From IMG/VR virus record IMGVR_UViG_2534681759_000003: a stretch of 5,715 nucleotides of DNA; one strand, 5' to 3'. The position numbers and the translations under genes are program-made. Positions 1 to 5,715 of this stretch are shown piece after piece (position 1 is the first letter of the stretch; every line of letters starts with the position of its first letter). Source of the stretch: a virus. Taxonomy: Duplodnaviria; Heunggongvirae; Uroviricota; Caudoviricetes. The notes beneath the pieces were generated by a model. The model was not told where the DNA came from and ran no database searches. It saw nothing but the letters and a program-made list of their open reading frames with translations.

Positions 1-2521
1 CAAGCTGACCGTTATCAATCTGCGTCCACAGCTCCTGAGCCAGATGGGTTTTCCCTATCTCGCCTTTGAAAAAATCCAGATAGCCTGATGCATCATCACT
101 CGGCTGACCGACAGCCTCCACGAATGCCGATTTGCCAACGGTGTTCACACTGCGAACATAAAAATAATAATCATGGCCCGGTTTGATATTGATACTGGCG
201 GCTATCCAGTACAGCGCCGTACCAAGATAACGCGCGCTGGTTTCAACCTGCCTGATATCCGCAATCCGCTTTTCCGAGAACCAGAACTCAAACTGTACCG
301 TCGGATCATAAACCGCAAGATGCGGCGTGGCGGTTATCTGAAAATAGCCCGGTGTCAGCTCAATCCGCGACGGCGCTGCCGGGGCGGCAATCCGGAACGA
401 TACCGACGCCGGATCGCCCTGCTGCCCCCACGCATTTACTGCCCGGACTGTCAGCCTGTAGTTCCCCAGAGCCAGTTGTGTGAAGCGGTAAGTGGTTTCC
501 GTCGTCCGGGCCGTGCTGACCAGCCGCTCACGGCCGTCATCCGCTGCCACGGTCAGGCGAAGCAGGAAGCTCACGCCCTTCACCACCTTCGGCGTGTCCC
601 AGCGCGCCAGCACCTGGTATTCCCCGCTGTCTGCGGTGACTTCTGCGGTCAGGTGCTGCACCGCTGGCGGCGTGACACCATTTACCGTGCCGCTCTGGTC
701 GCCGTCAAAGTGCGCCCCGTTATCCACGATGGCCTCTTTCTCCGGCACATGCTGCACGGCGGTGATGGCATACGTGCCGTCGTCGTTCTCACGGATACTC
801 ACGCAGCGGAACAGGCGCTGGCGCAACGTCGGCAGCTTCAGCCCCCATACGCTGTATTCAGCAACGCCGTCAGGAACACGGCTCACTTTCACCTTCACGC
901 CGTCGGTGACGGACTGAACCTCCACGCTGACCGGACTCCCCTGCCCGTCAACCAGGCTTATCAGCGTGGTGCCGGAAGATGGCAGCGTGATTTCACGGTC
1001 GAGCGTCAGCGTCCGGGTCTGGCTGTTCACCGCCAGCACGCGCCCGCCGATGCTGATACCGGCATAGTCATCATCGCAAATTTCAATGACATCGCCCGGT
1101 ACATGGCGAAGCCCTTCGGCACCCACGCTGAAGTCCACGGTCTGCGTTTCCAGCAGTTCCGTTTTAATCAGCCACAGCCCGGCGCGGTGTGCCTGCCCCC
1201 GACTGGTACAACCAAAGGCATCCATCTTCGTGACATTACGACCGTAACGGGCAATGGCCTGCGTATCTTCAACAAGCTCTGTCGCCGTCTCCCAGCCGTT
1301 GTTCGGGTCAATCCAGTTCACCTCAACGGCATTATGGCGGTCCTTCAGGGCGCTGAAACTGTAGCGGAACGGCGCGCCATCATCCGGCATCACCACATTA
1401 CTGCGGTTATAGATCCACACCTTATCCGACGGTCGGTCCTGCACGAACGTCAGCGTCTGCCCGTTCCATACCGGCATACAGCGCATCGCAGAGCAGAAAT
1501 CACTGAGCACATCCCACGCCTTGCGCTGTGTGGTCAGGTACGCATTACAGGTGATGCGCGGCTCCGTGCCGCCAAAGCCGTCCGGCACTGACTGGTCGCA
1601 GTACTGGCCGATGACATACAGCGCCCATTTGTCCACATCCGCCGCACCAAGACGTTTCCCCATGCCGTAGCGCGGATGGGTCAGCATATCCCACAGACAC
1701 CAGGCCATGTTGTTGCTGTATGCTGGCTTAAACGTTCCGTCCCAGATACCGCTGTATTGCCGCGTCTGCGGGTTATAGTTCGACGGCACCTGCAGAATGC
1801 GCCCGCGCAGATGATAATTACGGCTCACCTGCTGGCTGCCGAACTGCTCCGAGTCCACCTGCACGCCGACCAGTGCCGTGTTCGGGTAGCACTGTTTCAC
1901 ATCGATAATTTCGGTGTATGACGACCAGAGCGTTTTGTTCTGCAGCTGGTCTGTGGTGCTGTCCGGCGTCATCCTGCGCATCCGTATATTGAACGGGCGC
2001 GGCGGCAGGTTATCCACCACCACCGAGGCCAGATACTGTGAAGTGGTTTTACCCTTAATGGTGATGTCTTTTTCCGTCACCCAGCCACCGTTACGTTGTA
2101 TCTGAACCAGCAGGCGGACTTCCGATGGATTCCTGTCCCCCTTTGAGGTGGTTTCCACCAGTGCCTGCACGCCGAAAGTAAAACGCAGACGGTCAATGTT
2201 TGCCGACGTGATGGTCCGGGTGATCGGCGTGTCATATTTCACTTCTGTACCGAGCACCGTCTCGGAGCCGGAGGATTCAAATCCCTCCGGCGGTGTCTGC
2301 TCCTGCTCACCGGCCCGGAACACCACCGTGACGCCGGATATATTGGTATTCCCCTCAGTGTCCAGCACCGGCGTACTGTTCAGCAGCACGCTTTTTAATC
2401 CATCCACCGGACCTTCAACCGGCCCTTCGCTGATGGCATCGATCACACTCAGCAGCTGCGTGGACTTCAGGTTGTCCTTCGCTTCGCGCGGGGTATGCCC
2501 CTTACTGCTGCCTTTACCCAT
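1..2521 (-). CDS. J: Tail tip host-specificity protein J (central tail fibre), N-terminal ~840 codons; 3' end lies beyond the window start
   Basis: ATG at 2521..2519 (plus-strand cat) preceded by GGAG (2530..2533) with an 8-nt spacer. Hand translation of the minus strand gives [58 protein letters not shown]..., which I recognise as lambda gpJ. The ORF track reports no stop-terminated minus-strand ORF in 1..2521, consistent with one frame open to the window edge. Position directly downstream of I matches lambda gene order. Confidence 0.92.
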
Positions 2522-2530
2522 TCGTCATGC

Positions 2531-2563
2531 TCCATAAACGATAAAACCGCCCGGAGGCGGTTT
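2531..2563 (-). terminator. Terminator-like stem-loop in the I-J intergenic spacer (8-bp stem, 4-nt loop, followed by a U-rich tract on the minus-strand transcript)
   Basis: Plus strand 2544..2563 aaaccgcc-cgga-ggcggttt is a perfect inverted repeat. On the minus-strand RNA it reads AAACCGCC-UCCG-GGCGGUUU followed by UAUCGUUUAU, then the J SD and ATG. Function not established; in lambda the late operon is read through under Q antitermination. Confidence 0.3.
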
Positions 2564-2581
2564 CACATAAAACATTTTGCA

Positions 2582-3253
2582 TCAGCGACCAATCACCACA
2601 ACCTGACCACCATCCCCTTCGTCTGCCGTGCTGATCTCCTGAGAAACCACGCGTGACCCCACGCGCATTTCACCGTACAGAACCGGCAGAACATTACCCT
2701 GGGCAACCATGTTATCCAGGGAGGAGAAATAGGTGTTCTGTTTGCCGTTATCCGTTGTCTGTGTACGGGGAGTTCTGGCTTTCGGTGCCAGCATCTGCGC
2801 CACACCACCGAGCACCATACTGGCACCGAGAGAAAACAGGATGCCGGTCATACCACCGGTCCCAATGGCTGCCCCCCATGCTGCAAGGGTGGCTCCGGCG
2901 GTAAAGAATGATCCGGCAATGGCGGCAGCCCCCAGGACAATCTGGAATACGCCACCTGACTTGGCCCCGGCGACTCTGGGAACAATATGAATCACAGCGC
3001 CATCAGGCAGAGTCTCATGTAACTGCGCCGTTAACCCGGACGTGCTGACGTCCCGCCCGGCAATCCGTACCTGATACCAGCCGTCGCTCAGTTTCTGACG
3101 AAACGCCGGGAGCTGTGTGGCCAGTGCCCGGATGGCTTCAGCCCCCGTTTTCACACGAAGGTCGATGCGGCGACCAAATCGTTGTAAATCCCCGTAAAGG
3201 CAGATGCGCGCCATGCCCGGTGACGCCAGAGGGAGTGTGTGCGTCGCTGCCAT
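2582..3253 (-). CDS. I: Tail assembly protein I (N-terminal ubiquitin-like beta-grasp domain, C-terminal Gly/Ala-rich hydrophobic region)
   Basis: 223-aa ORF in the track (MAATHTLPLASPGMARICLYGDLQRF...QVVVIGR), recognised as lambda gpI. Putative SD GAGAGG about 11 nt upstream (complement of 3265..3270). Start lies 103 nt inside the 3' end of K, as in lambda. Stop TGA at 2584..2582. Confidence 0.93.
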   Translation of the reverse strand: MAATHTLPLASPGMARICLYGDLQRFGRRIDLRVKTGAEAIRALATQLPAFRQKLSDGWYQVRIAGRDVSTSGLTAQLHETLPDGAVIHIVPRVAGAKSGGVFQIVLGAAAIAGSFFTAGATLAAWGAAIGTGGMTGILFSLGASMVLGGVAQMLAPKARTPRTQTTDNGKQNTYFSSLDNMVAQGNVLPVLYGEMRVGSRVVSQEISTADEGDGGQVVVIGR

Positions 3254-3894
3254 TTGTCGGTGTACCTCTCTCGTTTGCTCAGTTGTTCAGGAATATGGTG
3301 CAGCAGCTCGCCGTCGCCGCAGTAAATTGCGGCGTGATTCGGCACTGATGAACCAAAACAGCACAGCAGCACATCGCCCGGCTGTGCCGCTGACAACGGC
3401 ACCTGATACAGCCCCGTCGCCTCCAGATTATCCAGATAGAGATTCTGGCCGTTACGCCACCAGTCATCCTCACGATAAAAGTCCGGCATCTCAATCCCCG
3501 CCAGATGATAAGCATCCCGGAACAGTGTGTAACAGTCCGTCACACCGTGCTCAAAGCGCCGCCCGGTGAGATGCGGCACACAGCGGAACTTATGAATCGT
3601 CCCCCGGCAGACCAGCCACCACGGCAAATCACTCTGCACCTGCAGCCGCCGGTCGGTCTCACTCAGCCAGGGCAGACCACCGGGGTGGCTGTGGACCAGC
3701 GCCACAATCTCACCCTGCATCTCTGCCCGCAGCCAGTCCTCCGGCGACATCCGGAAATACTCCTCCGGCTCACCGGAGATATTCACGCAGGGAAAATATC
3801 TTTCCCCCTCCGGCGTGCTTACCACGAAGCCGCACGACTCCGCTGGCGCACATCGCCGGGCGTGCGCCAGAATCGCTGATTCTGTCTGTGTCAT
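3151..3894 (-). CDS. K: Tail tip assembly protein K: N-terminal JAB/MPN (JAMM) metallopeptidase-like domain plus C-terminal NlpC/P60 cysteine peptidase-like domain (long 247-aa form; alternative internal start at 3750 gives the classical 199-aa form)
   Basis: 247-aa ORF in the track. JAMM signature H68-S-H70-x7-S78-x2-D81 (HSHPGGLPWLSETD) with a candidate upstream Glu in AESCGFVV (E19). NlpC/P60-like Cys in GVTDCYTLF and His residues in NHAAIYCG / LLHHIP. ATG at 3894 lies 5 nt after the L stop. Internal Met49 (3750..3748) is preceded by GGAGGAG (complement of 3760..3766) with a 9-nt spacer. Confidence 0.88.
   Translation of the reverse strand: MTQTESAILAHARRCAPAESCGFVVSTPEGERYFPCVNISGEPEEYFRMSPEDWLRAEMQGEIVALVHSHPGGLPWLSETDRRLQVQSDLPWWLVCRGTIHKFRCVPHLTGRRFEHGVTDCYTLFRDAYHLAGIEMPDFYREDDWWRNGQNLYLDNLEATGLYQVPLSAAQPGDVLLCCFGSSVPNHAAIYCGDGELLHHIPEQLSKRERYTDKWQRRTHSLWRHRAWRASAFTGIYNDLVAASTFV
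3760..3766 (-). promoter_or_regulatory. K: Shine-Dalgarno sequence (GGAGGAG) serving the internal K start codon at 3750..3748
   Basis: Complement of plus-strand ctcctcc at 3760..3766, 9 nt upstream of the in-frame ATG that corresponds to the classical 199-aa K start. Confidence 0.5.
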
Positions 3895-5055: not shown

Positions 5056-5715
5056 TTAATCACCACATGGTTATTCTGCTTAAAAGTCATGCCTGCGGCC
5101 CGCCGCATCTGCGCCGGGCTGCCCGGTGTACCGACATAACCGCCGGTGGCATAGCCGCGCATCAGCCGGTAAAGATTCCCCACGCCAATCCGGCTGGTTG
5201 CCTCCTTCGTGAAGACAAATTCACCACGGTGAACAATCCCCGCTGGCTCATATTTGCCGCCGGTTCCCGTAAATCCTCCGGTTGCAAAATGGAATTTCGC
5301 CGCAGCGGCCTGAATGGCTGTACCGCCTGACGCGGATGCGCCGCCACCAACAGCCCCGCCAATGGCGCTGCCGATACTCCCGACAATCCCCACCATTGCC
5401 TGCTTAAGCAGAATTTCTGTCATCATGGACAGCACGGAACGGGTGAAGCTGCGCCAGTTCTGCTCACTGCCGGTCAGCATCGCCGCCATATTCTGTGCAA
5501 TACCATCAAAGGTCTGCGTGGCTGCACTTTTTACCTGCGACATACTGTCCGTGGCGCTCTCTTCCCACTCACTCCAGCCGGACTTCAGGCCTGCCATCCA
5601 GCTCCCGCGAAGCTGGTCTTCAGCCGCCCAGGTCTTTTTCTGCTCTGACATGACGTTATTCAGCGCCAGCGGATTATCGCCATACTGTTCCTTCAGGCGC
5701 TGTTCCGTGGCTTCC
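5016..5715 (-). CDS. H: Tail length tape-measure protein H, C-terminal portion (5' end beyond the window); frame ends at TGA 5018..5016, earlier than expected from lambda
   Basis: The minus-strand frame reported as 5016..5651 (211 aa from an internal Met) presumably continues upstream to the window edge (not verified codon by codon). Contains a Gly/Ala/Ser-rich hydrophobic segment (VGIVGSIGSAIGGAVGGGASASGGTAIQAAAAKF) and ends ...NNHVVINNDGTNGQIGPQL. Position immediately upstream of M matches lambda gene H. Confidence 0.85.
   Translation of the reverse strand, partial: EATEQRLKEQYGDNPLALNNVMSEQKKTWAAEDQLRGSWMAGLKSGWSEWEESATDSMSQVKSAATQTFDGIAQNMAAMLTGSEQNWRSFTRSVLSMMTEILLKQAMVGIVGSIGSAIGGAVGGGASASGGTAIQAAAAKFHFATGGFTGTGGKYEPAGIVHRGEFVFTKEATSRIGVGNLYRLMRGYATGGYVGTPGSPAQMRRAAGMTFKQNNHVVINNDGTNGQIGPQL

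Follow-up and report, generated by a model that had tools for sequence, protein, structure and literature searches.

A predicted intrinsic terminator directly upstream of gene J in a lambda-like tail region and the hairpins found at the same junction in related phages

The lambda-like tail region studied here carries, within the late operon and directly upstream of the ribosome-binding site of J, a G+C-rich hairpin followed by a U-rich tail, which we take with moderate confidence to be a Rho-independent (intrinsic) terminator. It would stop RNA polymerase lacking Q before J and would be read through in lytic growth. Hairpin and U-tail occur together only once in the window, by which we mean the whole stretch of 5,715 nucleotides that was analysed; they are conserved, and they recur at the same junction in related phages. 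We infer that transcription would actually end here, with some efficiency, and that polymerase modified by Q would pass.

During synthesis of the minus-strand RNA, the CCGCC-UCCG-GGCGG hairpin should form in the RNA exit channel while the active site holds a weak rU:dA hybrid formed by the UUUUAUCGUUU tract, and unmodified RNA polymerase would then release the transcript. In lytic growth, the Q antiterminator loaded at pR′ would allow the polymerase to read through and J to be expressed normally. The terminator would act on Q-independent transcription, whether spurious, due to read-through or initiated at the promoters of prophage cargo genes, which would thereby be kept out of J and the genes beyond. 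In relatives that carry forward cargo in the I-J gap, the orthologous hairpin would be the terminator of the cargo gene. Lambda Q makes the polymerase resist hairpin-dependent terminators across the whole late operon, and the expectation of the earlier note that Q-modified polymerase would read through agrees with this; neither Q nor pR′ is part of the window. That the hairpin described here is passed in the same way is suggested by analogy, namely by the 96-97.5% identity to lambda-type phages combined with the established knowledge of lambda Q.

Layout, folding and scoring of the I-J spacer

The window holds lambda-like tail genes, encoded by the minus strand, and is matched over its whole length by lambda-like phages with 96-97.5% identity; in these phages H, M, L, K, I and J are annotated on the minus strand. 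Pfam places Lambda_tail_I at 2582..3253 (E = 1e-28; gene I) and FNIII-A_GpJ in the open reading frame starting at 2521 (E = 2e-42; gene J). An earlier note on this DNA had called the spacer between the two genes the only real intergenic gap, and this is correct provided that K is taken as the long open reading frame 3151..3894, as in the curated phage 434 record. The same spacer length of 60 nt is found in 102 related loci.

On the mRNA the spacer reads UGCAAAAUGUUUUAUGUG-AAACCGCC-UCCG-GGCGGUUU-UAUCGUUUAU-GGAG-CAUGACGA-AUG (Table 1). A repeat search returned the same arms and spacing as the perfect 8-bp stem with a 4-nt loop at 2544..2563 that the earlier note had described, and the U-rich run followed by the Shine-Dalgarno sequence and ATG of J can be read on the minus strand as UAUCGUUUAU, GGAG and ATG. 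The U-tract consists of four U, AUCG and UUU with a longest contiguous run of 4 U, and its first three U are able to pair with the upstream AAA. The spacer contains neither an open reading frame nor a promoter-like site; it thus holds no moron (cargo) and the slot is empty. A 472-aa open reading frame antisense to J (173-1591, plus strand) probably reflects no more than the composition of J and would not be a gene.

Table 1. Positions of the elements of the I-J junction in the window, listed in the order of the mRNA
Feature	Positions	Strand	Remarks
Stop codon TGA of tail assembly gene I	2582..2584	-	mRNA 5′ boundary of the spacer
I-J intergenic spacer, 60 nt	2522..2581	-	
Weak G-U-rich lower helix, upstream strand	2567..2575	-	pairs with 2527..2535, GGAG included; predicted in lambda-type spacers only
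Extended 11-pair stem-loop GUGAAACCGCC-UCCG-GGCGGUUUUAU	2541..2566	-	-16.9 kcal/mol
Hairpin 5′ arm AAACCGCC	2556..2563	-	G+C core CCGCC at 2556..2560
Tetraloop UCCG (DNA TCCG)	2552..2555	-	
Hairpin 3′ arm GGCGGUUU (DNA GGCGGTTT)	2544..2551	-	G+C core GGCGG at 2547..2551
U-rich tract past the G+C core, UUUUAUCGUUUAU, 9 U of 13	2534..2546	-	
Tail past the 8-bp stem, DNA TATCGTTTAT	2534..2543	-	
J ribosome-binding site GGAG, 8 nt before ATG	2530..2533	-	phage 434 record: ribosome-binding site at the equivalent place
J start codon ATG	2519..2521	-	

The calculation of folding energy that had been proposed in the earlier note gave -23.2 kcal/mol for the spacer (z = -4.08), a value as low as which was obtained with none of the shuffled sequences (0/200). 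The 5-bp all-G-C core of the stem accounts for -9.7 kcal/mol and the 8 pairs for -13.2 kcal/mol, and the 11 pairs, G-U included, reach the value given in Table 1. The stem is that of an intrinsic terminator (G+C-rich, ~5-14 pairs, with a loop of 3-8 nt, on the transcribed strand), and so is the orientation, the element being non-coding and in sense direction, with no positive site on the opposite strand of the window. The inverted repeat alone is not significant because a perfect 8-bp hairpin with a 3-8 nt loop turns up in 43% of the sequences obtained by dinucleotide shuffling of the window (mean 0.66), and several coding stretches of the window fold more stably than the hairpin. No local fold of the window is more stable than the one inside gene H at 5088-5134, on both strands (-23 to -24 kcal/mol per 40 nt); it is coding and has no T-tract.

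We used a combined score d, which requires a perfect-stem hairpin and is composed of a T-weighted tail and the stem energy per nucleotide; it was calibrated internally, with coefficients that reportedly go back to the 1990 work of d'Aubenton-Carafa and co-workers. With d = +19.3 the I-J hairpin is the sole positive site on both strands of the window, which agrees with its earlier description as terminator-like. Shuffled sequences yield 0.07 positive sites per 11.4 kb, and 19.3 was reached in 0 of 100. Applied to the whole lambda genome (J02459.1), the score returned 17 sites, with a strong one directly after lom; some of them we take, from their positions, to be t_oop, tR2, t_imm and tL3. tR′ escapes the score, which requires perfect stems. 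A simple consensus terminator scan of the window (at least 5 T in 8 bases) did not list the I-J hairpin because the T-run is interrupted, and the same scan does flag the orthologous hairpin in one cargo-bearing locus (L072) and the hairpin of a second stem family in another (family B, L180). Since the U-tract is interrupted, the predicted efficiency of termination is moderate and may be low. A search of the window and ten related loci against Rfam 15 gave sub-threshold chance matches only; the one overlap, with SAM-SAH, scored 17 bits where the gathering score is 40 (E = 2.9) and was rejected as such a match.

Conservation of the hairpin and its recurrence in other lineages

The set of related junctions was obtained with the N-terminus of J from the window and from four diverged relatives as queries, and both gene boundaries could be defined in 242 loci with 110 distinct spacers. 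A sense-strand hairpin with a T-tract precedes J at 219 of these 242 junctions (90%). This conservation, and a d of +19.3 that went unmatched in 100 shuffles, speak against a fortuitous structure, an option that the earlier note had kept. The hairpins belong to three stem families. Family A (143 loci, 4 of them with a UCGCC wobble 5′ arm) is defined by CCGCC-N4-GGCGG followed by TTTTGTCGTTT, lies 20-26 nt from the J start and comprises the lambda-type phages, Gifsy-1 and a Citrobacter-type clade whose J is only 66% identical. Family B, with CAGGCAYCC-TCCG-GGRTGCCTG followed by TTGTTTTT at 41-52 nt from the J start, is found in 54 loci from Stx/O157-type phages. Family C (22 loci, spacers of ~340 nt) has the stem-loop CCCCGGTATC-TGCT-GATACCGGGG followed by TTTCTCTTT, ~103 nt from the J start. 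Among the loci collected, many short low-coverage contigs from non-enteric assemblies (L008-L019, L021, L025-L027, L029, L031, L035-L053) carry a J that is 97-100% identical to that of lambda; we suspect that those contigs, e.g. from Kitasatospora, Bradyrhizobium, Paenibacillus, Shewanella and Chromatium, represent lambda DNA that contaminated the assemblies.

The block TTTTGTCGTTT hardly varies within family A. Forty-nine distinct spacers of this family were aligned, and 95.7% of the helix cells are paired; the five core pairs are essentially invariant and do not covary. The outer pairs vary yet stay paired, with one of them present as A-U (27), G-U (11) or G-C (7), and an A-U pair is changed to G-C in a cargo-bearing variant. 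A clean swap from C-G to U-A, with wobble intermediates present, has occurred in family B. The loop of family A varies freely, UCCG (79) and UGCG (57) being the most frequent, then UUCG, UCUG, UUAG, UCCA and UUUUG; loops UCCG, UGCG and UUCG fit the stable UNCG class. From the same 49 spacers RNAalifold predicted the hairpin only, with 10 of the 11 pairs of the extended stem, the pair of columns 15-30 being omitted. Family A shows modest covariation, for most measures of which shuffling gave no decisive control, and support comes from the outer pairs and family B; the case for conserved pairing rests on the whole pattern and not on covariation alone. Judged by the paired helix cells, the variable loops on constant stems and the compensatory changes, the pairing is under selection. 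The conservation check suggested in the earlier note thus turned out in favour of the element, with 95.7% of helix cells paired, loops that vary, outer pairs that are A-U, G-U or G-C, and unrelated stems in other lineages (see below). As for an intrinsic terminator, pairing and U-tract are both kept at homologous positions.

Twelve Citrobacter-type loci have a T-to-C change that lengthens the stem and weakens the T-tract (GGCGGTTCTG), and their score falls below zero. This counts against a terminator, in that the stem may be more important than the tail. Variants that strengthen the stem at the tail's expense would suit a post-transcriptional RNA element, i.e. a barrier to 3′ exonucleases after an endonucleolytic cut in the U-rich tract, which would stabilise the upstream head-tail segment or set the 5′ end of a processed J mRNA without any termination. 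Such a role would also be in keeping with the strong conservation of the hairpin although Q-modified polymerase should ignore a terminator in lytic growth, and with similar lambda hairpins after the highly expressed genes D and E, where stabilising would be sensible and of which the D-E one is annotated in phage 434. However, a T-tract follows every hairpin family and a pure stability hairpin needs none, and gene I, just upstream, is needed in small amounts. We consider a purely post-transcriptional element unlikely. 

In more distant lineages, with J homologues 31-38% identical, different stems, which form stronger predicted terminators, occupy the same I-J junction. A site was present in 76/80 loci of HK022-like phages, in 78/80 loci of N15/phiKO2-like phages and in 17/18 loci of T1-like lytic phages, with scores between 17 and 44 in these samples. 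Examples are GCCCC-TATCCT-GGGGC with T7 in Serratia phage Bonzee, GCCACC-TTGC-GGTGGC with T7 in phiKO2, a stem related to the latter with one mismatch in HK544, and CCCGC-CTTGC-GCGGG with T8, then a TATAAT-like hexamer, in a lytic T1-like phage. Phages of Mannheimia, Morganella and Burkholderia have no I-J gap at all. To judge from these junctions, a terminator-shaped element before J is widespread and not universal.

The T1-like group, which has an I-J terminator without lysogeny, followed by the TATAAT-like hexamer, might point to an old operon boundary and to a partial terminator in lytic growth, which the earlier note had named first, as a possible means of setting the J:I transcript ratio, and at which a fraction of Q-modified polymerases stops and the J and distal transcripts are lowered relative to those of the upstream tail genes. 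J and the distal genes are needed in few copies, which would suit such attenuation. On the other hand, lambda Q confers resistance to hairpin-dependent terminators, the predicted strength of the site is only moderate, and translation initiation is what Sampson and colleagues, in classical work of 1988, reportedly held mainly responsible for the relative expression of the lambda late genes. Attenuation during lytic growth is very unlikely in our opinion.

Across the lineages the hairpin lies 17-106 nt from the J start, and a T-tract follows it throughout. Both observations bear on the idea that the element controls translation of J, either through the lower helix, which would hide GGAG, or through hairpin and U-rich tract together, which would form a ribosome standby site or an S1-binding enhancer. 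The minimum-energy fold of the window and of lambda indeed pairs GGAG with a run of U, the ribosome-binding region having an unpaired probability of 0.16-0.18, and in family A and the HK022- and N15-like groups the end of the hairpin is nearly fixed at 17-26 nt from the start codon. However, the lower helix is not conserved, with 73.6% of cells paired, many breaks and no place in the RNAalifold structure. Gifsy-1, the cargo variant and the Citrobacter type have an open binding site (0.72, 0.61 and 0.51, respectively), and the hairpin is 41-106 nt away in families B and C and in the T1-like group. Occlusion of the ribosome-binding site by the lower helix as a conserved feature was rejected, the pairing being confined to the lambda-type spacer, and translational control of J in any of these forms appears highly improbable. 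Since a T-tract is present in all hairpin families and the distance to the start covers 17-106 nt, termination fits better than a role in translation.

The stem-loop is not peculiar to this junction. At least 120 IMG/VR contigs contain the 18-mer CCGCCTCCGGGCGGTTTT, and 92 of 121 matches lie elsewhere than upstream of a lambda-like J. We read 45 of the matches; most have longer T-runs, and in many a ribosome-binding site and a start codon come next. The stem-loop CCGCCTCCGGGCGGTTTT is by these contexts a generic phage terminator. A sequence-specific protein or DNA site need not be invoked behind the invariant core, the 18-mer being a generic terminator in 92 unrelated contexts.

Cargo genes at the I-J junction

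The spacers fall into length classes of 60, 71-72, ~240, ~340, 477-491 and 714-851 nt. Long ones hold a reverse-oriented gene for a Cu/Zn superoxide dismutase, sodC (Pfam Sod_Cu, E = 9e-35), and other long spacers a forward gene for a 116-aa lipoprotein, a reverse gene for a 100-aa lipoprotein or a forward 208-aa gene. The periplasmic sodC in reverse orientation between I and J was seen in L038 (834-1364), L141, L030, L033, L268-L271, L304 and L332, from Citrobacter, E. albertii and O157-type prophages; the lipoprotein genes are in L072 and L157, and the 208-aa gene, without Pfam match, is in L172.

Where the gap exceeds 400 nt, 10 of 16 loci have kept the family A hairpin 25-26 nt from J, with the cargo between I and the hairpin. 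The remaining 6 represent an 848-851-nt sodC cassette and have no hairpin before J, which argues against the terminator. Also against it, no Q-independent sense transcription that would need a stop is evident in a phage without cargo. In L072 and L106 the hairpin is 23 nt past the stop codon of the forward lipoprotein cargo gene, and in L172 it is ~50 nt past that of the forward cargo gene. With reverse cargo (sodC, 100-aa lipoprotein) the hairpin is upstream of the cargo promoter, and therefore part of the J side of the junction and not of the cargo.

Many of the longer spacers also have a terminator on the antisense strand just after I. The terminator before J may form one side of a conserved and insulated cargo bay, in which transcription from within (sodC, lipoprotein and small-RNA units) would be confined and which would accept cargo bearing its own promoter without J being switched on in the lysogen; a resident terminator would explain an insertion hot spot. 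We put this forward tentatively, as a possible but on balance doubtful extension of the terminator proposed here.

In the I-J gap of L183 (ON470626.1, 750-885), which stands for the longer Stx/O157-type spacers, we noticed a promoter-like TTCACA-16-TATAAT on the reverse strand (11/12 matches) and, ~80 nt downstream of it, the reverse-strand terminator TCCGCGATCACTGCGGG followed by T7. The pair resembles a putative small RNA gene of ~90 nt antisense to the late operon. The hairpin at the left end of this spacer is also present in L180 (754-770), L181, L182, L030 and L033. A small RNA, PasB, is located within a phage structural operon and is present in NC_049945, the source of L180 (2026 preprint). 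The putative small RNA of the Stx-type spacers may be PasB.

The turnover of cargo at the junction, with gap classes that hold sodC, lipoprotein or other genes or their remnants, could mean that in a phage without cargo the hairpin is an inert relic or a mosaic joint, a residue of earlier cargo cassettes or of an ancestral operon boundary, re-imported time and again by I-J recombinants without any present function. That the hairpin is the sole conserved block between otherwise unalignable spacers would be compatible with this. Its conservation is too good for a relic, however: when clades are compared, J is only 41-58% identical at its third codon positions and no alignment of the remaining spacer is possible, whereas the hairpin block is identical over 20-31 nt, and the stems are constant while the loops are variable. 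Hairpin or tail are moreover degraded in two prophages with a broken J (L045 and L046). We judge it quite unlikely that the hairpin is functionless. These two are decaying prophages in E. coli / Shigella chromosomes, with I and J frame-shifted or diverged and the spacer kept; the hairpin is weakened (GGGTGG) or the T-tract lost (GGCGGCTGTGCG), which fits relaxed selection once J is dead.

Taken with all of this, an intrinsic terminator remains the most economical reading of the element, because sense-strand T-tracts are kept, the hairpin has no fixed spacing from the start codon, annotators have called terminators at this junction with other software, and forward cargo would be ended by the orthologous hairpin.

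Prior annotation and known terminators

A terminator at the I-J junction is already known as a prediction, from the annotations of phages 434 and phiKO2, and it is of the type most often met among terminators of bacteria and phages; the census across lineages and the view of the junction as a cargo bay are modest additions. We found no literature on mapped 3′ ends, read-through or other experiments at the lambda I-J junction, and the classical lambda record J02459 has no feature annotated at the I-J hairpin. For the window itself the element is of little import, an ordinary module of the standard intrinsic-terminator type. Its value lies in phage annotation and engineering, as lambda-, HK022-, N15- and T1-like phages retain a terminator directly before J, the host-range gene, and the I-J gap of lambda-like relatives repeatedly bears cargo expressed in the lysogen, such as sodC. 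In swaps of the J module or insertions of a payload at I-J, the hairpin is predicted to block transcription that is not antiterminated.

Scoring of the lambda late operon (J02459.1) placed sense-strand sites at 6101-6114, 7164-7179, 18920-18935 and 19613-19632, i.e. in the D-E, E-FI and J-lom gaps and after lom, as well as in the I-J gap and once within gene C. Nearly every sizeable intergenic gap of the lambda late operon holds such a hairpin with a T-tract. The curated record of phage 434 lists terminators at D-E, I-J, J-lom, after lom and after tfa.

Morons have been described as bearing their own promoter and terminator (PMC3594210). Moron terminators of lambdoid late operons, e.g. that of HK97 gene 15, are like the I-J hairpin in L072, L106 and L172, where the orthologous hairpin follows forward cargo in the I-J gap. 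The window differs from these in its 60-nt spacer without cargo gene or promoter.

Lambda tR′ and the terminators flanking lom resemble the I-J site in being built like intrinsic terminators and in lying within the pR′ transcription unit or at its edge, and Q-modified polymerase should ignore all of them. For tR′, termination and read-through by Q have been experimentally demonstrated. Our score finds the lambda sites before and after lom, both of which are annotated in the phage 434 record. The I-J site, a predicted terminator, ends no cargo gene in the window.

The closest counterpart is the I-J terminator predicted in phage 434 (OL657226.1, 15466-15485), which has the same stem-loop CCGCC-TCCG-GGCGG at the same position, with the same spacer length, ribosome-binding site and J start. 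The tail reads TTTTGTCGTTT in phage 434 and TTTTATCGTTT in the window, and the annotation of the former is itself a computational prediction. In phiKO2 (AY374448.1, 15298-15320) a 'putative terminator' is annotated between the I-like gene 20 and the J-like gene 21, and the architecture of hairpin, T-tract, ribosome-binding site and J start is shared with the window. The hairpins of phiKO2 and of HK022-like phages differ from that of the window by the stem GCCACC-N4-GGTGGC, an unbroken T7, a d of ~34-44 compared with 19, and an end that is 17-19 nt from the start codon.
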